Shown piece by piece: positions 16,132-55,410 of a DNA stretch of 64,000 bases. The first letter of the stretch is position 1, and every line of letters starts with the position of its first letter. Source of the DNA: a virus; IMG/VR virus record IMGVR_UViG_3300046780_000484, positions 17,628 through 81,627 of that record; one strand, given 5' to 3'. The translations under genes were made by a program, and so were the position numbers. The notes below the pieces were generated by a model that saw only the letters and a program-made list of their open reading frames with translations, searched no databases and was not told the DNA's origin.

Positions 16132-17415
16132 TCATGCGGCACCTGCCAGAGGTTCACGCAACCGCCTCCCGGCAAGCCGGGGACTCGGCGCTGTGCGCCT
16201 GCGCGTGCTGTTAAGGCCGGCTGCCCGCCGGGCCTTCCGCTCAATATTCAGAGCGGCATTCTTGTCCGCGTGATCGGTGTGGCCGCATGCGGTGCAGGCG
16301 AACTCCCGCCCGCAGCCGGGTCTACTTTTGGGATCCACTGTCCCGCATGCCGAGCACGTTTGAGACGTGAACGGCGCGGGAACCACCCGCAGTTCGCTCC
16401 CGAACAGGGGAGCCTTGTACTCCAACTGGCGGCGCCGTTCGTAAGGGATATTGTCCAGGATCGCCCGGTTGAGAGCCGCCTTCTGGCGGATGTTCTTACC
16501 GGGAGCGTCGGCAGTACCCTTCGCGCTTGCCGTCATCCTCATCACCCGCAAGTCCTCGATGCCGACGTAGCCGTGGTTTTTGGCGAGGTCGGTCGTGAGC
16601 TTGTGGGTGAAGTCGAGCCTGCGCCGCGCTTGCCGACCGCGCAGATCAGCGATAGCGGCGTACGTCTTGCGGAGACGACTGGAGTACCGGCCGCCGTTGT
16701 GCTTCTTTGCATAGGCGAGCTGCCGCCGCGCCCGGCGCTCCAATCCAAGCAGCCGTTTCTGCTCACCCGGCGTGAGAGTCGGAGGCATCAGCCGGGGCGC
16801 ATCCTCGTCGGAGACGTAGGCTGCGCAGGTAGTGCCGAAGTCCACCCCGCAACCCGGCTTCTCGTTTGCCGGAGCGGCCTTGCGGCCCGTTGCGACACCG
16901 ACGACGAGATGCCATATGCCCGCACCGTTCACCTTGACCGTTGCGTTCCGCAGTTCACCGCCGAGCGATCGGGACCAGCGGAACCGCACCCATCCGATCT
17001 TCGGGAGCCGGATTTCGCTCCAGTGTCGGTTCAGCCGCCGTATCTTCAGATCCTGGCCGGTGAACGGGACGGCAAGGATCTTGCTGCGCTTCTTGCGCTC
17101 GGGGGCACCCGCCAGATGTCGCGGGTTCCACCAGTTGTCGTAGGCGCGGTCAAGATGCCTGAGGATCTGGTGTGCGCTCTGGGCTGGCATGTCGGTCAGC
17201 CAGGGCAGGTCGGCGCGGGCCTGGGTTAGGTAGGCACTCTGATCGAAGGCGCGCAAGGTGCGCCGTCGCTGTTCCCAGACGAACCGGCGCTGCTCCAGCG
17301 CGAGATTCCAGACAGTGCGGCACATGTGACCCCAGGCAGTCAAGCGTTCCGCTTGATCTGGTTCTGGGTACAGGCGATACTTCCGCGCAGAGTCTGCCTT
17401 GCGAGTCTCGCTCAC
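16132..17415 (-). CDS. tnpB: TnpB RNA-guided endonuclease
   Basis: N-terminal KYRLYP HTH; RuvC residues GVDFG, IEDL, ADKNAALNI all present; CSACG/CTACG zinc finger. Confidence 0.95.
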   Translation of the reverse strand: MSETRKADSARKYRLYPEPDQAERLTAWGHMCRTVWNLALEQRRFVWEQRRRTLRAFDQSAYLTQARADLPWLTDMPAQSAHQILRHLDRAYDNWWNPRHLAGAPERKKRSKILAVPFTGQDLKIRRLNRHWSEIRLPKIGWVRFRWSRSLGGELRNATVKVNGAGIWHLVVGVATGRKAAPANEKPGCGVDFGTTCAAYVSDEDAPRLMPPTLTPGEQKRLLGLERRARRQLAYAKKHNGGRYSSRLRKTYAAIADLRGRQARRRLDFTHKLTTDLAKNHGYVGIEDLRVMRMTASAKGTADAPGKNIRQKAALNRAILDNIPYERRRQLEYKAPLFGSELRVVPAPFTSQTCSACGTVDPKSRPGCGREFACTACGHTDHADKNAALNIERKARRAAGLNSTRRRTAPSPRLAGRRLREPLAGAA

Positions 17416-18776: not shown

Positions 18777-19938
18777 TTAAAGGCGTAAGGAGCGTCGCGC
18801 TGCCATGCGCGTCAGGAGTTCGTCAATGGCCGGTCCCATGTATTTCTCGGCGACATTGCCGACCTCGTACTGGCTCACCGACTCGCGGAGTTTTACCTGG
18901 TCAACGTCCTGCCGCTGCTCGTACGACTGCTCCAGCGCCGCAACCATTCCTGAAATGGAAGGGCGAATCCACCAGCCCCTGTGGACGCCATTGAAAAACG
19001 GCTCGCCGTCCACCTGGATGCCGTCCGGGTTCAGTTCCTCCATGGACGAGCAGCGGGTCGTGATGACGGGCGTCCCGCACGCTTTTGCTTCAACGATGGG
19101 CAGCCCGAATCCTTCCGCGTACGTCGCCGCCAGCAGCACGTCGCACATCCCGTACCAGTCAGCGAGATCAGCCGGCTGGATCAGCCCCGCGTTGTACCGG
19201 TACTGGTCCACTACCCGAACCCGGTCCGTGATCCCCAGCGACTCCGCCAGGAACTCCAGGTCCTGCCCCCCGTCGCAGTGCACCGCCGTGTGCAGCCACA
19301 GCAGCGAATCCGGCCGCGACCGCAGGAACTTCGCGAACGCGAGCAGCATCTCCGCCGGCGCCTTCCTGATCGCGTCGTTGTTAGCCGCGTTCACGCCGAT
19401 CACGAACGTCTCCGGGCCGAGCCCGGCCGCCTCCCGCAGCGCCGCCCGGTCCTCCGGGATGACCCACGTGTCGAACGGGATGCCGTGCGGCACGTAGAGG
19501 GCGTTGCCGAACCCGGCATCCCGGAACCGGTCCAGCCCGAACCGGGACATCGCTATCAGCGAGGCCCCGCCTGCTTCCACCACGTTCCTGTCCGCCACGG
19601 ACATCGGACGGCAGTCCGCGGGCAGCCAGTGCGCCACCGGGAGTTCCTTGAGCACGCCCGGGTCCATCACCCACACGTCGCCCAGGGTGATCACCAGATC
19701 GGGCTGGATGTGGCGGGAGTGCTGCTGGAGGGACGGGCTGCAGTACGACCCGCCGAAGCCGGGAAGGACCGGGATGCCCTCCCACTGGGTGACGGATCCC
19801 GACAGGCCCCAGTACGTAGCGATGAACACCTCGTGGCCCAATCCGGCAAGGCGCTTTATCCAGATTGCGGTCTGTTGTCCGTAACCGCTTTAAACTGGCG
19901 GACCACGGAGCGCAGCTGCTCCACAAGATCCTCGCCAT
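18777..19938 (-). CDS. GT4-family glycosyltransferase; frame broken by 7 nt insert at 19887-19893
   Basis: MARILWSSCAPWSAS + GYGQQTAIW in different frames; EGFGLPIVEAKACGTPVI GT-B motif. Confidence 0.85.
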
Positions 19939-20045: not shown

Positions 20046-20837
20046 GTGAAAGAAATCCCCTTGCGTGGTCGCCACGGGCAAGGTCGCGTCATGCTTGTGG
20101 ATGACGAAGACTACGAGCTAATGTCCCGCATTAAATGGCACGCCATCGTCGATAACAACGGCTGCCTGAGCGTTCAGGCACGGATCTCTGCCCACAACTT
20201 CCTTACCGGCTACGCGCTGACCGATCACGCCAACGGGAACCCTCTGGACAACACCCGAGGGAACCTGCGCGATGCCACATCCAGGCAGAACAGCTGGAAC
20301 AGGCGACTCAGGAGCGACTCCCGAACTGGCTATAAAGGCGTCAACTCAAGGCGGGGCGGGCGAGGGTACGTCGCACGGATCCTCGTAGACGGGAAGCGTA
20401 AAACGCTGGGATGGTTTCACGATCCGATCAACGCCGCGAAGGCGTACGACGCGGCAGCCCGTGAAGCCTTCGGGGAGTTCGCCCGGCTTAATTTCCCGGA
20501 TAGCGAAGACCTTCCGGACGCCCGGGAGTCTCGGGTTTCTCGTACGCAGCGCCGCGTCCGGGAGACGATTTCCGGAATGGAGGATCAGCCCAGCGGAAAG
20601 CAGTCCAAGTACTCGGAGGCCAGCTGGAACCGGCCCTACCGCGGGGGAACGCGGGCAGGCTTCAAGGGGGTCAACTGGTCAGGCAGGAGATGGCAGGCTC
20701 GCATCATGAAAGACGGGAAGCGGCACTTCCTCGGCACCTACGACACCGCCGAGGAGGCGGCCCGAGCGTATGACGCCGCCGCTTGCACCCTGTTCGGGGG
20801 TCATGCGCGGTTGAACTTCCCAGGGGAGGCGGCGTGA
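20046..20837 (+). CDS. HNH-AP2-AP2 homing endonuclease, counter-oriented
   Basis: DHANGNPLDNTRGNLR (HNH); two AP2 domains YKGV...LGWF...AAKAYDAAA...FGEFARLNF and FKGV...LGTYDTAEEAARAYD. Confidence 0.92.
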   Translation: MKEIPLRGRHGQGRVMLVDDEDYELMSRIKWHAIVDNNGCLSVQARISAHNFLTGYALTDHANGNPLDNTRGNLRDATSRQNSWNRRLRSDSRTGYKGVNSRRGGRGYVARILVDGKRKTLGWFHDPINAAKAYDAAAREAFGEFARLNFPDSEDLPDARESRVSRTQRRVRETISGMEDQPSGKQSKYSEASWNRPYRGGTRAGFKGVNWSGRRWQARIMKDGKRHFLGTYDTAEEAARAYDAAACTLFGGHARLNFPGEAA

Positions 20838-24950: not shown

Positions 24951-25948
24951 TCAGACGGTACGGCGGAAAGCATGCAAAAGAAGCTCACCCTCAGCGATCA
25001 GGTCCTCTGCGCCCTTGTCGCTGGACTGCGCCGCGCCGCCTACCGCGTGGATTGTCGTGGACGTCGCGCCCCGCGTGAGGGCCTCGGCGGTGCAGAAGTA
25101 GATGCACGCCTGCTGCACCGAGGACGGCATCGTCGTGACCACCGTCCCCGCCTGATGCGGGTAGGTGATCGCCTGCGAAAGGGTGAGGTTCCCCGGCCCG
25201 GAAGCAGCCGAGGTGGCGGTGACGTGGATGGATTCCTGCTGGCCGCCGTCCTGGATCACCCCGGTAGCCCCGGTGACCGTGCCGTAGTAGTTCGTGATCC
25301 CCCACCCGGTGCAGTCGTTCACCGGCAGCGACGTCGCTCCCGCCGCGACAGCGGAGGTGAGGGAGCAGTGCGGGTACCCGTTGATGTAGGTGACCTCGGC
25401 CGCCCACCCGTTCCGGCCGAGGGACCAGTTGATGTACCCGCCGCCCACGAGGATCGCCTGGCCGCCCTCGGCCGACCCGCCCGAGGAGACCGTGTTGAGC
25501 AGGCTAAGGGGGGGCACTTCGGGCTCGAAGAACCCGGACGGCAAGGACGTCCACGTGCGGGGCCACATCCCGTTCGGGCAGGTCTTCACCCCGGTCACCT
25601 GGAGTACCGGCCACCTGGACAGGATGATGCGGGCGTTCTGCGCCCCGGTGTTCCCCCAGTACGGCGTCGGCCAGGACCCGCCCGAGGCGGGGCCGACCGT
25701 CACCCGGTAGTCGGGGCCGTGGACCAGTTCGACGTCGATCGTGGCGCGGAGAGTCTGGGCGACGTAGCCGTCCGTACGGGCCGTGGCCCTTGCTGCCATG
25801 CTCCAGATTTCAGCCATATTCTGCGCTGGTGTCGGATCTGCGGTGGGTTCGCCTATCGTGCTCCAGTCGATGCTAAACCGGTCGGGGCCGTAATCAAGGT
25901 GGTCGGACTGATGTATGGAGCCAGACCAAGAGGAAGCGGCGTCGACAC
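24951..25948 (-). CDS. head-to-tail adaptor; frame broken by 5 nt insert at ~25872-25876
   Basis: GAGGTGA RBS + GTG gives MSTPLPLGLAPYISPTTLITAPTG, continuing as IDWSTIGEP in another frame; EVTYINGYPH, MPSSVQQAC, LLHAFRR adaptor-like motifs. Confidence 0.75.
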
Positions 25949-25965
25949 AAGGCATCACCTCGCCT

Positions 25966-26160
25966 TCATGCAGGTGATGCCTTGCGGCTGGGTTTACGAG
26001 CACACTTGGAGCAGATCCACTCGCCGTCGACCATGCTGATGTGCCGGTCGCAGCACCCTTCAAGGCAGACGGAGCACTGGGCGACCGGGGCGGACACGCG
26101 GGCGGCACGGCCGCGCTTGGGTCCCCCGCAGCGGGGGCAGAGTCCGGCCGCCCTGCTCAC
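25966..26160 (-). CDS. small Cys-rich zinc-binding protein
   Basis: CPRC, CSVC, CCDRH, CSKC; GGAG RBS. Confidence 0.6.
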   Translation of the reverse strand: MSRAAGLCPRCGGPKRGRAARVSAPVAQCSVCLEGCCDRHISMVDGEWICSKCARKPSRKASPA

Positions 26161-26851: not shown

Positions 26852-27202
26852 ATGAGCGAGCCTGATGAGGTCACCGCGCTAAGCGGCGAGATCGTGAAGC
26901 GCCCGGCCGAGGTGGCCACCACCCCGTCAGCGGCGGACACGCGGTACGAGGACGATGAGGTCGTGACCCGCGTGTTCGTCCGGGTCGAGTACGCCGGCGG
27001 CCGGATCCGCGAGTACCAGGCGCAGGAGCCGCAGGACTTCAAGATCAACAACCCGGAGTCCGCGCCGTCGATGGTGTTCAGCCGGGCAATGTCTGCGACG
27101 CGGGAGGTCCGGCTGAGCTTCAGGCCCAACCCGAGGTGGAACCTGCACATCCGCACCGAGGCGACGGCACCGGAAGACTTCCCCGGCATCACCTACGGCT
27201 GA
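26852..27202 (+). CDS. hypothetical protein, counter-oriented
   Basis: MSEPDEVTALSGEIV...; GC3-biased; -10-like GATGAT 6 nt before ATG. Confidence 0.6.
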   Translation: MSEPDEVTALSGEIVKRPAEVATTPSAADTRYEDDEVVTRVFVRVEYAGGRIREYQAQEPQDFKINNPESAPSMVFSRAMSATREVRLSFRPNPRWNLHIRTEATAPEDFPGITYG

Positions 27203-30756: not shown

Positions 30757-30979
30757 CGCTTGATGACCTTTCCCATCAGTTCATAGAGCGCGAGGAATTC
30801 TTCATCCCGCAGGGTTAGGGCGTTCTTCCACTCGCCATGCCAGCACCAGTTGATGTCCACGGCGTCGGTGCCCGAATCGCCGCAGGTGCGGCAACTCCAG
30901 TCCGCGTGGGTCGTCATGACCTGGAAGAGGCCTTCGGTAAGGTTCTGGCTGCGGACGACTTCCCCGGGGCGGTCATCAC

Positions 30980-31333
30980 TCATGTGAGGATCGGCACCTC
31001 AAGCCGCCGGGTGTCCGTCTCGTACGCCTCGCCGGAGCGCGGGCCGCGCGTGAAGACGAGGACCGTGCAGTCGGTCTCGGCCCGCCAGGCGTGCGGGATC
31101 CCCGCCGGCTCGGTGATCAGGGAACCGGGGCCGTAGGTCTTCTCGTGCACCCCGTCGTCCTCGATCCAGGCGGCGGTCAGCCGGCCTGAGCAGACGTACG
31201 TGTACTGCGTAGTCGCCAGGTGAATGTGGTTACCCCGGACCGACCCGGCCTTCGTGGAGATCTCCGTCACGGCGTCGACAGGGCCCAGCAGGTCCTGGAT
31301 GACGCCCCGGTGATCCTCGAAACGGTCAGCCAT
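30980..31333 (-). CDS. cupin, NDP-sugar epimerase/isomerase-like
   Basis: FEDHRGVI, GSVRGNHIH, PAGIPHAW. Confidence 0.8.
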   Translation of the reverse strand: MADRFEDHRGVIQDLLGPVDAVTEISTKAGSVRGNHIHLATTQYTYVCSGRLTAAWIEDDGVHEKTYGPGSLITEPAGIPHAWRAETDCTVLVFTRGPRSGEAYETDTRRLEVPILT

Positions 31334-43184: not shown

Positions 43185-46100
43185 CTACTTACCCTCTTCC
43201 ATCTGCGCGTGCTGTGCGGGCCAGTAGCCGAGCGCCCTGTGGTGCATGAGATTTGCGTAGCCCTTGGCCTGCTCGTCGGTCATGTGGGCGTGCTCTTTCA
43301 GCAGCGCGACCGCGCGCATGAAGTCGCCGTCGGTACCCCAGGCAATTTCGTCGGCGTAGGCGAAGTCCGTCGGGCCGCCGTGGGCTTCGTGCGTCCAGTA
43401 CTCGCGTAGCGTCTCGGCGTCACCCTTGTTCGCGGGGTCGTCGCCCTGATGCAACTGACTGCTGTGCGTCTGCAGCGCTTGGGGCATCCACCGGGCCGGG
43501 ACCGTCCCCACGTAGGCGAGGACCGGCTTGCCGAGCTTGAAGTGCCGCGCCATTCCCCGGTGATGGCCGTCGATGATGATCTCCCGGCCGTCGGGGTGGT
43601 TCGCCTGGTGGACGAGGACCGACGGGTTGGTGTGCGCCCCGCCCCTCGCGATGTCCTTGGCGAACCGCTGTACCGCTTCCGGCTGGTGGCTGGCGGCCCA
43701 CGAGTCGATGTCGTCGTCGTCGACGCGCGACCAGGGAACGTTGACGGGCCCGACCCATGTCGAATGCTTGACCCATTCCAGCGCGGAGTCCGGGAAATTG
43801 CCCTCTAGCTGGGCATATACGTGCCGCCATTCCACCGGGTTCGCGTCGGTGACGTGCTGCGCGCCCTTGGGGAGGTCGTGGACGACGTTGCTGCCGGCCT
43901 CCGGGGACCATTCCTCCACCGTCTCGGCCGGGTCGAACGCCTCAGGCTCGGCGGTGTGCGGCTTGTACGGCTCCGGGGTTCGTGCCGGAACGGAGCCGAC
44001 TACCGGGTGCCCGGAGTCGTTCGCGGACTTCACCCCGGACGGCGGCACCCCGGTACGGCCGCCGACGGGAGAGGCGGCAGGGGTGAGCGTGTTCTGCGGC
44101 GCAGGCCACATCTCGTCGTGCGCGTACCCCTGGTTCGGGAACGCCACGGCGGGAGGGTTTGGCTTGCGCCCGCGCGAGGGCATCTCCCCGTCATCCCCGC
44201 CGCGGGGCTCGAGCGTGTCGTGCGGCTCCGGCTCGGCCATGTCGTCGGACCAGCGCGGCGGTTCCCCGCCCGCGCTTCCGGCATCGCCTGGAACGGCCCC
44301 AGGGCCCGCGTCAGGCCATTCCGAGCCGTCCGCCCTGTGCGGATAGGGCCAGCGGCTGCCGACCGCCTGGAGCGCCTGCGAGGCCGGGGTGAGGGTGAGG
44401 ACTTCCCCGTTCGCGTTCACCATGCGCTGGAGGGCCTTGGTGACGTGCTCCCGCAGGGTGATGCCGTGCTCCCAGTCCTCGCGGAACTTCGGGGCCAGGT
44501 CCAGGGCGGCGATCTCCTTGCGGCGGAACCACGCCGCGCCCCGCGTCTCGTCCGGGGTGGCCCCGTCGAGGGTGGGGTGGAAGTACGCGGTGTCGCACAG
44601 CCACAGGTACACCTGCGTCTTGCCGTCGTCCTCCACATGGTGGAAGGTCCCCGCGATCCGCAGTTCAGGGAACTGGCCGATCTCCTCGGCCGTCTCCCGG
44701 AGCACAGCGGTCCACGAGTCCTCACCCACGTGCGGCTTCCCGCCCGGCATGCCCCAGGTGCCGTCGGGGCGCTGCTGGAGCAGGAACCGCCACTTGCCGT
44801 CCTCGTCGCGGGCGCGCAGCAGCAGCCAGACGAGGCGCGTCTCGTCGTCTACGGCGGCGGATTTACCCAGGTGCGCCAGCGGCGGCTCAGCTTCCACGCC
44901 TGCTGGCGCAGGTACGCATCGGCAAGCCGGATGGACCAGCCCCAGTACGCCCCCCGCCGAGAAGACGGCATCGAGCGGGATTTCTCCGTCATCGGCGGCG
45001 TCCTTGCACAAGTCACAGGCGTTAGGCGACAGCAGCAGGTGCTTGAACTGCACCCCGTGGTCGCGGTAGCACTGGATGGCCGCGCTGTTGACCGCCCTGG
45101 CCACTTCGGTCCGGGCGATGAGTTCCGCGCGGACGCTGTTGTTCCCCAGCCCGGTGCGGGCGACCTGCTGGAGCCAGTGCTCCCCCTCGGAGCCGATGAA
45201 CCCGGCCAGCGCCTCAGGGTCCTCCCCCTTGGCGCTGAAGTCCGCGGGAGCGCCCGTGACGAGGGACTTGGCCGCCGCGTAGCCGAGGTGCCACGCTTCG
45301 GTCCACAGGGGCGCCAGGACGCCGGAGAAGACGTCCCGCACCTCGTCGGAGATCAGGTCCCGCAGGGTGGCGTTGCTGACGTACATGCCCCCGGTGGCGG
45401 CCTTGCGGCGCAGGTCCGAGCCTTTGGCCTCGGCGTCGTGGAACGCCTGCCCGATGAGGTTCTTGTACGCGCCGACCAGGCCGAGGTCGCGCTCCCAGCC
45501 GGGCCAGTGCGCGGCGGCCTTCGTCACCTCGCCTGCCGGCGGGTATGAATCAGGGACGGGCCGGGGGCTGCCGCAAGCGACCGGCCCGTCGTCGTCAGCC
45601 TTGAGGCAGATGTCCCCGGCGCGTTCCACAGCCGTGTCGATCAGCACGCCCCTGGCGATGTCCTCGGCGATCATCCCGAGGGCGCGTTCCGGGATGTGCT
45701 CCGTCACCCACGTGCTGATCTGCCGGCCCTTGCGCAGGTGCCGGGCCAGCGCGCCGAGCTCGGAGTCGACGGCCTTCTTGCGGCTGCCGGCGACGGACGA
45801 CCGTGACGGGGTGCCCCCCGTGCGCGGGCCGGGCGACTGGATCGCTCCGGCGGCTGCGGAGTGGGCGGGGGTGACAGACTCCCGGTGCGGCGACACTGGT
45901 GCGGGATGCGAGCCGTTCGGCCGGGTCTGGCCGCCGCGGCGGACGGCCGGCTGGCTGTTCCGGGTCCGCGACGACGTGGTGCGCTGCCCGGAGTTCGTCC
46001 CCTGGCCCCCGGCGCCGCCGCCCTGCATGTTCGCGATGAGCTGCGGGGCCATCGAGAACGGGATCGGCCCCTGCGCCGTGAACACGACCGGCTCGCCCGT

Positions 46101-47657
46101 CTCCTGCAGGCCCCACGGGGGCATGTCCAGCCGGTCCCGCACCTCGTCGATCGAGGAGATGCCGTTCTGCACCTGCTCGACGCCCAGCTGCGTGATCGCG
46201 GCCTTGTCCTCGTCGTCCTGCAGGCCCTCGAAGGAGAACTTCATGTCGTGCTGGCCGCAGATGTCCTGCAGGACGTAGTTGGCGATGCCGCACAGGGTCA
46301 TCAGCAGCGGCTTGGTGGACTTGCGGGACTTCGGGTCCCGGGAGGCCTGCGCGCCGAGCTTGATGCCCGACGCGGACGGGCCCTGCTGGGTGGCGCCGAT
46401 GTCCGGGACGATCCCCAGTTCGGTCGGCATCACGTCGAGCTGCATGAGGACCTGGTTCATCACCAGGTAGTCGAACGAATCCGAAAGATCTACCGGACGC
46501 TGCGGGTCAACCTTGCTGCCAGGCGGAAGTACTATCACTTTAAGGTGATATGCAGGGTCTCCAGCGATTCCATTCAATGCGTCCTGCAGTTCTTTTATCT
46601 GCGTCGGCGTCATGTTCGGGTCGCCGGGCGAGATGTACACCGCCGGGATGGTGCCCTCGGTGAAGTACTGGAGCTGGAACTCCTGCTTCTGCAGGCCCGA
46701 GATGATCGGCAGCAGCGCCTGCTCAATCGGCGGGAACCCGTAGGGGCTTTCCCGGCGCGGGACGAGCGGCAGGTACAGCATCGTGTCGGCGCGGAACTGG
46801 TTGACTTCCGCGCCGGCGAGCCCGTAGTCGTCGATGTCGGCGCCGGAGATGACCGTCTGGAAGTCGCTGCGGGGCACGCCGAAAAGGAACTGCTGGTACG
46901 CCGGGGCCGGGGGGCGGGGCTTGCCGCCGTGCATGTTCAGCAGCGGCCGGATCGTGGGCCCGCTGATCAGGCTGAGGCTGTCCAGGTCGCTGCCGAGCAG
47001 GCCCCGGCCGAGTCCCTTGCCGTACTTGGGCCGGAAGATCAGCGCCAGGGCGTCAAAGACGAAGATCTCTTCGAGCAGCGCCTTGAGGAACGAGCCGAAG
47101 TCGAAGTAGTCCGGGTCCGGGTGCCGGAAGAACTTCGTCGCCTCCGCTGCGCGCTCCCCGAAGTCCCGCATCGCCTTGTGGTCGCCCTGGTAGGCCTTGG
47201 CCGCCTTGGTGGTGAGCTCGATGGACCACTCGAGCCCGGCGATCTCCTCCTTGCGGAGCTCGATGGCGCGGCGGGCGACGTTGTATTTACTGGCGATGGT
47301 CTGGAGCTGGGCGAAGCTGGCGAGCTTGAGGCCTTCGGCGCCGGGCTGGGTGGGGAGGTTCCACCCGACGGGGTACTGCCAGTAGCGCGGGTCGGGGAAG
47401 CCGCCGGGGGCCGCGGGCTCGTCGACGGGGACGGGTTGGATCGGCGACATGGGGCCGAACGCGCCGTCGGTGAACGTCCTGGACGGCCGGGGCAGGAACG
47501 GGCCGTAGCCGTTCTGGCCGGCGCCCGGGTTCCCGTACATCGCGTTGGCGGCGACCTGGTTCATGCCGCCCCAGCCGCCCGACTGCGGCGCGGGGGTGTA
47601 GCGAGCGCCGCCGGGGACTGCCTTCATCGCAGCGAGGACGCCCGAGGTGCGGCTCAT
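43185..47657 (-). CDS. portal protein fused to MuF, NUDIX and ParB/Srx-like domains
   Basis: Portal SPYGFPPIEQ, ISSIDEVRDRLDMPP; MuF IARTEVARA...HPACRC; NUDIX WGMPGGK...AVLRETAEEIG; ParB IIDGHHR. Confidence 0.9.
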   Translation of the reverse strand: MSRTSGVLAAMKAVPGGARYTPAPQSGGWGGMNQVAANAMYGNPGAGQNGYGPFLPRPSRTFTDGAFGPMSPIQPVPVDEPAAPGGFPDPRYWQYPVGWNLPTQPGAEGLKLASFAQLQTIASKYNVARRAIELRKEEIAGLEWSIELTTKAAKAYQGDHKAMRDFGERAAEATKFFRHPDPDYFDFGSFLKALLEEIFVFDALALIFRPKYGKGLGRGLLGSDLDSLSLISGPTIRPLLNMHGGKPRPPAPAYQQFLFGVPRSDFQTVISGADIDDYGLAGAEVNQFRADTMLYLPLVPRRESPYGFPPIEQALLPIISGLQKQEFQLQYFTEGTIPAVYISPGDPNMTPTQIKELQDALNGIAGDPAYHLKVIVLPPGSKVDPQRPVDLSDSFDYLVMNQVLMQLDVMPTELGIVPDIGATQQGPSASGIKLGAQASRDPKSRKSTKPLLMTLCGIANYVLQDICGQHDMKFSFEGLQDDEDKAAITQLGVEQVQNGISSIDEVRDRLDMPPWGLQETGEPVVFTAQGPIPFSMAPQLIANMQGGGAGGQGTNSGQRTTSSRTRNSQPAVRRGGQTRPNGSHPAPVSPHRESVTPAHSAAAGAIQSPGPRTGGTPSRSSVAGSRKKAVDSELGALARHLRKGRQISTWVTEHIPERALGMIAEDIARGVLIDTAVERAGDICLKADDDGPVACGSPRPVPDSYPPAGEVTKAAAHWPGWERDLGLVGAYKNLIGQAFHDAEAKGSDLRRKAATGGMYVSNATLRDLISDEVRDVFSGVLAPLWTEAWHLGYAAAKSLVTGAPADFSAKGEDPEALAGFIGSEGEHWLQQVARTGLGNNSVRAELIARTEVARAVNSAAIQCYRDHGVQFKHLLLSPNACDLCKDAADDGEIPLDAVFSAGGVLGLVHPACRCVPAPAGVEAEPPLAHLGKSAAVDDETRLVWLLLRARDEDGKWRFLLQQRPDGTWGMPGGKPHVGEDSWTAVLRETAEEIGQFPELRIAGTFHHVEDDGKTQVYLWLCDTAYFHPTLDGATPDETRGAAWFRRKEIAALDLAPKFREDWEHGITLREHVTKALQRMVNANGEVLTLTPASQALQAVGSRWPYPHRADGSEWPDAGPGAVPGDAGSAGGEPPRWSDDMAEPEPHDTLEPRGGDDGEMPSRGRKPNPPAVAFPNQGYAHDEMWPAPQNTLTPAASPVGGRTGVPPSGVKSANDSGHPVVGSVPARTPEPYKPHTAEPEAFDPAETVEEWSPEAGSNVVHDLPKGAQHVTDANPVEWRHVYAQLEGNFPDSALEWVKHSTWVGPVNVPWSRVDDDDIDSWAASHQPEAVQRFAKDIARGGAHTNPSVLVHQANHPDGREIIIDGHHRGMARHFKLGKPVLAYVGTVPARWMPQALQTHSSQLHQGDDPANKGDAETLREYWTHEAHGGPTDFAYADEIAWGTDGDFMRAVALLKEHAHMTDEQAKGYANLMHHRALGYWPAQHAQMEEGK

Positions 47658-53664: not shown

Positions 53665-55410
53665 TCACAACCGCCGCCCCCGGAACGGGTCCATCCCGGA
53701 GTATGCAAACCGGCCATTCCCCCCGCCTGCGGACAGGGTGAGCGCTTTCGCCAAATATTGCTCAGGGTTCATCGAACAGTGCGGACACGACGGCTCACGG
53801 GGCGGGTACGTCTTCCCGCACTCCTCGTTCGTGCAGGTCTTCAGGTACGCCACCGACCACGGGACCTGCGCGGGCCTGCCCCCGGCGTGCTTGGCGGGCA
53901 TCGGGGTGACCTCCGCGCCGCAGTTGGCGCACCGCTGGTCCTTGTCCTCGTTGACCCGCGCCCCGCACTTGGTGCAGTCACGGAACCCGTAGACGATGCC
54001 CCAGTCGCCCTGATTGCCGCCGGCGAGGTGGATCATGGCCCAGACAAACGCGTCCGCACGGTCATCGTGCATGCGCGAGCGGTCGTCTTCGATAGTCATC
54101 GCCGACAACTGCTCTTCCAGCTTGCCGAAGCTGTCCCCGACCATGTGCACCCGGCCCTGCATGAACAGGCTGGAAGGCCCCTGCGCCCGCGCGACCTTGC
54201 CCTTCATGCCCGAGACCGGCCGGATCGGGATGTTCGGGTCGACCGTGGCCAGCAGCGACCGGATGAAGTCGCCTGCCACGTTCACTTCCGCCACCACGCA
54301 GTCCGCGGCGTTGCGGTAGAACGCCTCGGCGATGACGCGCATCTGCTGCTCCGGGTCGAACCGGCCCGAGCAGTCCTCGAGGCAGTAGTAGTCCCCGTCC
54401 GCACCCTCCGCCAGGACGGCGATACCGGACTCGTCGCTGCGGGCACTGGACGTGGTAGCCGGGTCATAGCCGACGACGACGCGCCGCCACTGCGGCAGGT
54501 GATCCATCCCGGGGAACACGCGGGTCTCGTTGAACTTCTCCAGCGGGAACAGGCACCCGTCGACCTCGGCCAGCAGCTCGCCTTCGAGTTCCTGCCTGAG
54601 CATGGACGTTCCGGCGTACTTGCGCTCGAGGGTCTTGCGCTGCCTCGCGGCATAGTGCGGGTTCTCGGCGGTACGCCCGCGGGTGACGTGGACGCCGGTC
54701 TCGGCTTCGTTGTCGCCGTCGGCCAGCAGGTCGCGCAGCAGGCGGACCCGCTTAGGCGTGGTGGTGATCAGCAGCCGGGGGTTGTCTCCCTTGCGGAGCG
54801 CCGGCTGCAACCCCTCGTGGTAGAACTGGAAATACCTGATCATCGCCAGTTCGTCGAACCAGGCGTACGCCAGGTTCTCGCCGCGGATCGAGTCGGGCTT
54901 CTCGGCGCTGAAGCCCCGGATCTTGCTTCCGTTCTCGAACGTGAGCTCAAGCCGGTTCTTGTTGTAGTCGGTGATACTGACGCCGTTCACGCGCGCCACG
55001 GCCTCGACGCCGGATTCCCCTTCGATGCAGATGGAGCGGACGGCTTTGTCGGTGGGGGCGCAGATGCCGACGTAGATGCCGGGCTTGGACAGGGCCATCT
55101 CTATGACCCAGTTTGCCCCGCAGAGCGTTTTTCCCCACCCGCGCCCGGTAAGCAGCATCCAGGTGGACCAGTCCGGGTTCCCGTCGCAGCCGCACCTGTT
55201 GCCTTGCAGGTCAGCGTCAGCGTGACGGGGGTGGTCCGGGGGAAGCTGGGACGGCCGGGGCCCGGAGTCTTCCTCCAGCGTCTCCGGCTTGTCCCACCAG
55301 CGGAGCTTCGGGAAATACAGAGCGTGATAATCGCTCAACCAGCGCTCTTGCACGGCCCTCGGCCAGGCCTCGAACCCGTCCGGGAAATCGAGGCCGCCGG
55401 GGGTGCTCAC
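53665..55410 (-). CDS. terL: large terminase subunit with C-terminal zinc ribbons
   Basis: Walker A GRGWGKT, Walker B AWFDELA, ITTTP, QELEGE, GYDPA nuclease, DDRADAFVW. Confidence 0.95.
   Translation of the reverse strand: MSTPGGLDFPDGFEAWPRAVQERWLSDYHALYFPKLRWWDKPETLEEDSGPRPSQLPPDHPRHADADLQGNRCGCDGNPDWSTWMLLTGRGWGKTLCGANWVIEMALSKPGIYVGICAPTDKAVRSICIEGESGVEAVARVNGVSITDYNKNRLELTFENGSKIRGFSAEKPDSIRGENLAYAWFDELAMIRYFQFYHEGLQPALRKGDNPRLLITTTPKRVRLLRDLLADGDNEAETGVHVTRGRTAENPHYAARQRKTLERKYAGTSMLRQELEGELLAEVDGCLFPLEKFNETRVFPGMDHLPQWRRVVVGYDPATTSSARSDESGIAVLAEGADGDYYCLEDCSGRFDPEQQMRVIAEAFYRNAADCVVAEVNVAGDFIRSLLATVDPNIPIRPVSGMKGKVARAQGPSSLFMQGRVHMVGDSFGKLEEQLSAMTIEDDRSRMHDDRADAFVWAMIHLAGGNQGDWGIVYGFRDCTKCGARVNEDKDQRCANCGAEVTPMPAKHAGGRPAQVPWSVAYLKTCTNEECGKTYPPREPSCPHCSMNPEQYLAKALTLSAGGGNGRFAYSGMDPFRGRRL

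Follow-up and report, generated by a model that had tools for sequence, protein, structure and literature searches.

A TTA-led five-nucleotide coding gap, probably bypassed in translation, in a late gene of an uncultured high-GC phage

The window analyzed here is a stretch of 64,000 nucleotides (nt) taken from the IMG/VR virus record IMGVR_UViG_3300046780_000484 (bases 17628–81627 of 81.6 kb; the record is about 68% G+C and estimated to be 67% complete), which comes from an uncultured high-GC soil phage. Within its minus-strand structural block, a gene referred to below as the adaptor-like gene is interrupted 24 codons after its start by the five bases TTAGC, and it probably carries a coding gap of the type found in the Streptomyces phage phiHau3, decoded by translational bypassing. 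On the minus strand, a Shine-Dalgarno sequence (GAGGTG, 25961–25956) lies 9 nt before a GTG start codon (25948–25946), from which the 5′ coding segment runs in frame A for 24 codons, GTG to ACC GGT (25877..25948), and reads MSTPLPLGLAPYISPTTLITAPTG. The last of these codons, GGT (25879–25877), would be the take-off codon. It is followed by the non-coding block TTAGC (25872..25876), made up of TTA (25876–25874) and GC (25873–25872), the last three bases of which form the putative landing triplet AGC (25874–25872). The 3′ coding segment, or body, resumes at ATC with IDWSTIGEPTADPT... and comprises 306 codons and a stop (24951..25871). Under normal decoding of TTA, frame A would be closed by a TAG (25853..25855) seven codons further on, leaving a peptide of 31 amino acids (aa). 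Relative to frame A, the body is read in the −1/+2 frame, so that a skip of five nt joins APTG to IDWSTI. Direct reading of the sequence reproduced the frames, the gap and the junction proposed in the original prediction, including the closure of frame A seven codons after TTA.

The joined product (24 + 306 = 330 aa) has the modal length of its homologs. A search with the body (residues 29–334 of P0001; E ≤ 0.001) returned 707 relatives, all metagenomic and none with a Pfam domain. Among the 120 homologs listed, two main length classes and a few odd lengths were found. Proteins of about 328–334 aa begin with the unbroken sequence M[ST]TPLPLGLAPYISPxxLxxAPTG[IV]DW[ST]TI, and forms of 281–288 aa were called from an internal methionine (MAEIW...). 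Over its first 44 residues, P0004 equals the two segments of the window joined together, residue 2 excepted, with no residue gained or lost. Omission of TTAGC yields APTG|IDWSTI, as anticipated, a junction identical to that of P0004 and found likewise in 21 uninterrupted distinct loci. In 25 full-length sequences, A21, P22, T23 and G24 are invariant and D26 is nearly so. The homolog alignment that had been suggested as a check showed that the homologs follow the MSTPLPLGLAPY frame and not the MPCVDAASS frame. On the sequence evidence, the five bases are extra, and the upstream and body segments form one gene, whose bypass junction peptide is expected to be ...TAPTG-IDWSTIGEPTADPTPAQNMAEIWSMAAR.

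Comparable gaps recur in relatives. Ninety-nine adaptor loci were fetched (L002–L100: L002 from the first scan, 18 viral contigs and 80 metagenome contigs), of which 28 lacked the N-terminal motif and were left unclassed. The other 71 loci and the window gave 72 rows, corresponding to 57 distinct 150-nt regions (56 loci and the window), whose junctions were classed by reading. Twenty-one regions were uninterrupted and 36 contained some break. A TTA-led block stands at 29 of the latter (5–26 nt, after codons 23–28), breaking the frame directly after the last collinear codon in 28 regions and forming an in-frame 9-nt block in one. Most frame-breaking blocks measure 7 nt (16 of the 28) or 10 nt (six); two are 5 nt long, and single cases of 8, 11, 15 (with an in-frame stop) and 26 nt were found. 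Take-off codons are T23 in nine cases, D26 in seven, I25 in six, G24 in five and S28 in one. Tandem double blocks were present in three rows representing two distinct sequences (L045, and L046 with its duplicate L094). Omission of the block always restores the consensus APTG[IV]D[WFY]x[ST][ILV] at the right spacing and length. Divided by 3, the block lengths leave every possible remainder, so the family as a whole cannot be accounted for by one +1 or one −1 shift. This is illustrated by the closest interrupted relative, L002 (77% identity), which carries GGT[TTACCTGAGC]ATC at the same codon as the window and would need a +1 shift, not −1.

The breaks other than TTA-led ones were few. Two of the 57 regions hold TAG-led blocks (ACC[TAGCC]GGC in L026 and a 26-nt block after ACA in L029), and two hold a 12-nt in-frame block containing TAG, CAACCGTAGGAC, between GAT and TGG (L024/L072). 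In all of these, a stop codon appears to take the part that TTA has in the other gaps. The last three regions show a 2-nt insert (L051/L052 and L083) or homopolymer differences (L100). The 2-nt insert, TGG TCT [CC] ACC/ACG, contains no TTA and is kept in two diverged sequences; it may represent a +2 hop from TCT to TCC.

The phage contains another TTA-led gap built like that of the adaptor-like gene, as had been pointed out from the sequence. It interrupts a GT4 glycosyltransferase gene, identified by the Pfam domains Glyco_trans_1_4 and Glycos_transf_1 (18777..19938, minus strand), which consists of an ATG at 19938, 15 codons in all, a 7-nt gap (19887..19893) and 369 codons with a stop. The upstream segment reads MARILWSSCAPWSAS and ends on AGT (19896–19894), followed by the block TTAAAGC and by GGT (19886–19884) TAC GGA, i.e., GYGQQT... 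in the +1 frame. Here the take-off AGT and the landing AGC are serine codons of one tRNA, and in the resumed frame a TAA stands directly before AGC. Uninterrupted homologs contain ...PWS[AP]SGYG[xQ]T (for instance P0124), with PWSASGYG across the site, and about one-third of the listed GT4 homologs are truncated calls that begin at MGHEV. Among 30 viral GT4 loci, 23 fitted the anchor pattern and seven were left unclassed; TTA-led blocks were found in six of the 23. They read AGC[TTAATGC]GGT (L103), TAT[TTAC]GGA (L107), CCG[TTAGCCG]AGC (L111) and AGT[TTAGC]GGT (L122), the last with the same five bases as the adaptor-like gene, and two are in frame, a 9-nt block in L119 and CCT[TTACCC]AGC in L132. 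The in-frame blocks, too, are headed by the rarest codon, and their last triplet is synonymous with the take-off codon, a structure which suggests that they are skipped rather than read. On the phage contigs that hold the locus pairs L002/L132, L004/L119 and L011/L122, as in the window, both the adaptor-like and the GT4 genes carry TTA-led blocks. At 108 nt from the GT4 start, a divergent gene (20046–20837, plus strand) encodes an AP2 domain (40.8 bits, above the cut-off) with an HNH_3 match of 18.3 bits, below the cut-off, and looks like a homing endonuclease. No endonuclease was found adjoining the adaptor-like gene.

The codon that heads both gaps is otherwise avoided by this phage. Among the 10,234 codons of the training set of long open reading frames (ORFs), a single in-frame TTA was counted, and the 52 ORFs selected from the 81.6-kb record contain four altogether, at least two of these before the likely start. 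One of the four (18786–18788, minus strand) lies three codons before the GT4 stop. Out of 12 GTTTA sites, TTA is in the coding frame at two, which are the two gap sites. This pattern is far beyond chance. Scans for more TTA-led gaps based on third-position G+C (GC3) and on codon scores were swamped by antisense shadows. In a frame-aware scan of the 81.6-kb record, 55 TTA sites were retrieved, and only the two known gaps were convincing by eye. The genome-wide character attributed to the phenomenon in the original prediction therefore amounts to two TTA-led sites, with no convincing third. Among the sites rejected, that at 30940 of the window (ACC TTA CC) is read through by a continuous ORF from the ATG at 30983, which leaves the TTA out of frame, and that at 26882 lies upstream of the start of its gene. 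The record contains no tRNA genes.

Sequence variation on either side of the gap was also considered. Between the window and L002, the 24 upstream codons differ by 10 synonymous and two conservative changes, as counted by eye. Over 30 gap-bearing sequences, the entropy of the upstream segment is 0.55/0.26/1.42 per codon position, i.e., the variation is mostly at third positions. In the resumed frame, the ten codons that precede W47 give 0.75/0.46/1.06 (26 gap-bearing sequences). Such profiles are those of purifying selection, which is acting on both flanks of the gap.

Between these conserved flanks, the blocks themselves change rapidly. A FastTree tree was built from 61 bodies (52 of them different), after exclusion of 11 of the 72 rows whose body was shorter than 230 aa. 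At least 23 changes of gap state were counted on it, and the distinction between gap and no gap changes at least nine times; as the tree is one of proteins that probably recombine, these counts are a rough lower bound. The row nearest to the window, L027 (87% identity), has no break. L054 and L055 differ in their gaps, ATT[TTAGCTC]GAC and GGT[TTACCGC]ATT, though their bodies are identical, and L025, which has no gap, is nearly the same as L036, whose gap measures 26 nt. These state changes, together with the near-identical genes that differ in their gaps, indicate that the blocks turn over fast; they appear to be quickly gained, lost or exchanged, probably by recombination at the 5′ end. The earlier view that the gaps are not errors and could be mini-inserts skipped at TTA is thus upheld by their recurrence in relatives as small, fast-moving inserts. 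A broader proposal, that TTA-led blocks are actively turning-over mini-inserts of 4–26 nt homing to the first 15–30 codons of late genes throughout a large clade of uncultured actinophages, is advanced only tentatively.

The way in which the adaptor-like gene would be decoded can be outlined as follows. The ribosome would start at the GTG at 25948 and read 24 codons; at this point peptidyl-tRNA-Gly would occupy GGU in the P site, with UUA, a very rare codon, in the A site. Should the host be slow or unable to decode UUA, the peptidyl-tRNA could let go and the mRNA slide by 5 nt, so that the tRNA would settle on AGC with positions 2 and 3 paired and position 1 mismatched. Decoding would then resume at AUC and give a 330-aa protein collinear with the uninterrupted relatives. 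If UUA were decoded instead, the 31-aa peptide would be made and the virion protein lost. The hop itself, the re-pairing on AGC, the dependence on tRNA-Leu(UAA) and any regulatory use are what we infer by analogy.

Several observations weigh against such a hop. The landing AGC is not cognate to tRNA-Gly: GGT and AGC match at positions 2 and 3 only, the two-out-of-three pairing that had been noticed at the outset. By contrast, landing and take-off codons are synonymous at the GT4 site and at the two phiHau3 sites. Among the 28 distinct gaps of the adaptor gene, seven share the first two bases of take-off and landing, 16 match at positions 2 and 3 only (GGT>AGC or CGC, ACT>GCC or GCT, ATT>CTC), two match at positions 1 and 3, and three match poorly. 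On this tally, the choice of landing place may not depend on re-pairing. Two options present themselves: the P site accepts a mismatch at the first position, or the place is fixed in some other way. No significant RNA structure was detected around the site (folding z-scores of +0.93 and +1.02, compared with −0.76 for the GT4 site and −0.99 and −1.85 for the phiHau3 sites). A 4-bp hairpin (CGGU/AUCG) with a loop of exactly UUAGC can be drawn, and it is too weak to build on. No Shine-Dalgarno-like signal was seen upstream of the gap, and among the 24 sequencing runs listed, the probable source run is the only one that spans it.

Other explanations were weighed against bypassing. Hungry codons are known to provoke frameshifts, and the body frame, −1/+2 relative to frame A, is stop-free across the junction of the window. 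In a programmed −1 (or +2) frameshift at GGU UUA, a ribosome halted at UUA would either step back by one base and read UUU AGC, giving APTG-FS-IDW, or move ahead by two bases and read AGC, giving APTG-S-IDW. A frameshift at hungry codons is an alternative also discussed in PMC10732093, and a −1 slip had been retained as one for this gene. It is nevertheless unlikely at this site. The sequence C GGT TTA does not form an X XXY YYZ slippery heptamer, tRNA-Gly would be unable to re-pair on CGG, and one or two residues would be added inside the invariant APTG[IV]D motif. Moreover, relatives would need +1 at some loci and −1 at others, with up to eight extra residues, while skipping always restores the consensus length. 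In the resumed frame of L011, L013, L017, L018 and the GT4 site, a stop stands directly before the landing triplet. A scheme with no recoding, in which a frame-A peptide of 24–31 aa and the body are made separately, the latter from the ATG at 25955 or from an internal ATG (MAEIW), deserves very little credence. The ATG at 25955, already noted in the original prediction, does belong to the body frame and is preceded by AAGG at a distance of 6 nt, and many homologs were started at MAEIW by gene callers (281–288 aa). However, the ATG at 25955 forms part of the Shine-Dalgarno string GAGGTGATG (window 25953–25961, minus strand). In the 10 relatives listed with their upstream sequence, GGAGGTGATG precedes the start in three (L013, L016 and L017) and close variants in two (L007, GAGGTGATG; L004, GGGGGTGATG), and in L007 the ATG of the string is directly followed by TAG. 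Of 26 gap loci, 25 have a stop that closes the resumed frame and lack any ATG, GTG or TTG ahead of the junction, the window with its ATG at 25955 being the exception; nine of the 26 have no start before W47. These closed frames and the position of the ATG within the Shine-Dalgarno string make separate initiation of the body unlikely. No homolog has an equivalent of the MPCVDAASS... stretch, the residues from the junction to the first methionine stay conserved, and the frame-A peptide is under purifying selection and fused to the body in the 21 uninterrupted versions.

Removal of the five bases from the mRNA before translation, by editing or some other excision, would account for the same protein. 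We know of no mechanism that removes blocks of 4–26 nt defined only by a leading UUA. In addition, the phiHau3 junction peptide was obtained from an unprocessed reporter in E. coli in which UAA replaced UUA, as described in PMC10732093, and this route is considered extremely improbable here. An assembly or sequencing indel, or a pseudogene, would dispense with recoding altogether. The record is a metagenome assembly; the contig of X2 record 14 covers 25855–25994 without an indel but with fewer than 31 letters on one side, and under a bridging rule of 31 letters on each side the X2, X4 and X19 contigs do not bridge the gap. The RNA runs hold only small shares of the stretch. Against this, blocks of differing length occur at the same few codons in the 36 interrupted regions, from many metagenomes, with the rarest codon at the head of 29 of them; both flanks are under purifying selection; and a second site of the same build is present in the same phage. 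The same design with different block sequences in many independent metagenomes excludes an assembly artefact, and artefact or decay taken together can hardly be believed.

The comparison with known systems is in line with bypassing. According to PMC10732093, which cites Smith et al. (2013), UUA-led gaps occur in the large terminase gene of phage phiHau3 (g6/g7/g8) and of the StrepC.1 and S. catenulae prophages. In the same source, Antonov et al. (2023) describe a full-length terminase product in Streptomyces, a bypass junction peptide identified by mass spectrometry in E. coli with UAA replacing UUA, and a +1-frame stop inside the gap that did not lower the yield. Read from the phiHau3 record, the two terminase gaps are GGC[TTACTCCGGT]AAG and TCT[TTAACGGTCC]ACG, with landings GGC>GGT and TCT>TCC. 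As in phiHau3, the rare TTA of the adaptor-like gene directly follows the last collinear codon (GGT TTA here, GGC TTA and TCT TTA there). It heads a short non-coding block (5 nt here, 7–10 nt there) whose removal restores collinearity, and it lies in a late or structural gene of a high-GC phage that otherwise avoids TTA. Unlike in phiHau3, the genes concerned encode an unnamed virion protein and a GT4 glycosyltransferase rather than the terminase, the gap is shorter and only 24 codons from the start, and the landing AGC is not synonymous with the take-off GGT. The gap is also polymorphic in about half of the relatives, whereas blocks were reported in only three of 100 terminase genes (Antonov et al., 2023; PMC10732093). 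No strong local RNA structure was found at the window site.

The coding gap of T4 gene 60 is 50 nt long; its take-off and landing codons are both GGA, and a stem-loop at take-off, a signal in the nascent peptide and a Shine-Dalgarno-like element go with it. The adaptor-like gene shares with it a peptidyl-tRNA thought to leave a glycine codon next to a non-decodable A-site codon and to land downstream, and the TAG-led gaps of L026 and L029 add to the resemblance; it differs by its 5-nt gap, by the sense codon TTA after take-off and by the GGT/AGC pair. The byps of Magnusiomyces capitatus are 27–55 nt long, belong to a mitochondrial genome and rely on different signals, unlike the gaps described here. 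They are similar in being many short, position-shifting inserts skipped in translation, as presented in PMC10732093. Hops that occur spontaneously in E. coli when a hungry or stop codon is met, treated in the same paper, likewise involve a short hop at a slow A-site codon toward a similar landing triplet. These are, however, low-level errors seen with reporters or over-expressed genes, whereas the present gap is fixed in a conserved phage gene in many lineages. The best reading is that the phenomenon is of a kind already published (PMC10732093), to which the window would add a further case with a shorter gap and an imperfect landing triplet. In the literature searched, UUA-led bypass was found only in that paper, the works cited there and reviews, and none was found outside terminase genes or in metagenomes.

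Among the papers found, UUA-triggered bypassing is documented by three terminase genes and one reporter study (PMC10732093). With the locus come two new gene families from one phage, and with its relatives dozens of independent gaps of varied build along with their uninterrupted counterparts. This provides comparative evidence that gaps are tolerated in conserved, probably essential genes, as well as material on take-off and landing rules, on the minimal hop length (4–5 nt) and on the interchangeability of UUA and stop codons. If the blocks are indeed mini-inserts, the family would be a natural mutagenesis series defining the rules of short-range bypass, one of which could be landing by pairing of positions 2 and 3 only. 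In addition, among the homologs listed, gene callers return 281–288 aa instead of 330 aa, so annotation pipelines mis-call such genes in high-GC phages.

Concerning the host, a 98-aa regulator of the BldC family is encoded about 370 nt before the window (record 16958–17254; NF033787, 97.8 bits for a cut-off of 77), and this gene hints at an actinomycete. Its presence would suit an actinomycete with scarce or regulated tRNA-Leu(UAA). A scan of genome contigs for prophage relatives that might identify the host gave 42 pattern matches, none of which was confirmed, and a search of phage genomes with 2 kb of DNA around the site gave no match. There is no close isolate phage: the terminase reaches at most 38% identity, and the gap protein has only two distant matches. 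A gate on virion assembly set by tRNA-Leu(UAA) is plausible, and the blocks might in this way tie virion assembly to the state of the host. They might also confer immunity to homing endonucleases, such as the product of the HNH/AP2 gene beside the GT4 gap.

The name head-to-tail adaptor, given to the gap protein in the original prediction, is a guess. It agrees with a weak tblastn match (E = 4e-4, covering 36% of the query) to a protein of Alicyclobacillus phage MMB025 annotated as a head-tail adaptor, and with an Atlas cluster lead, PF24163, present in 19% of the members. Searches of the gap protein against Pfam and PHROGs gave no match, and a PDB profile search gave nothing at E ≤ 1. An AlphaFold model from a 25-sequence alignment had a predicted local distance difference test score (pLDDT) of 42.7 and was unusable.

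The minus-strand structural block that contains the gene also includes the large terminase (53665–55410), a 1490-aa portal fusion (43185–47657, minus strand) with PHROGs matches to portal, minor-head (SPP1 gp7-like) and NUDIX families, and genes for pectate-lyase-like fibres. Directly upstream of the adaptor-like gene lies an ORF for a 64-aa cysteine-rich, zinc-ribbon-like protein (25966–26160, minus strand), for which Pfam and NCBIfam searches gave no match. L002 carries a different gene at this place, which shows that the neighbourhood is variable.

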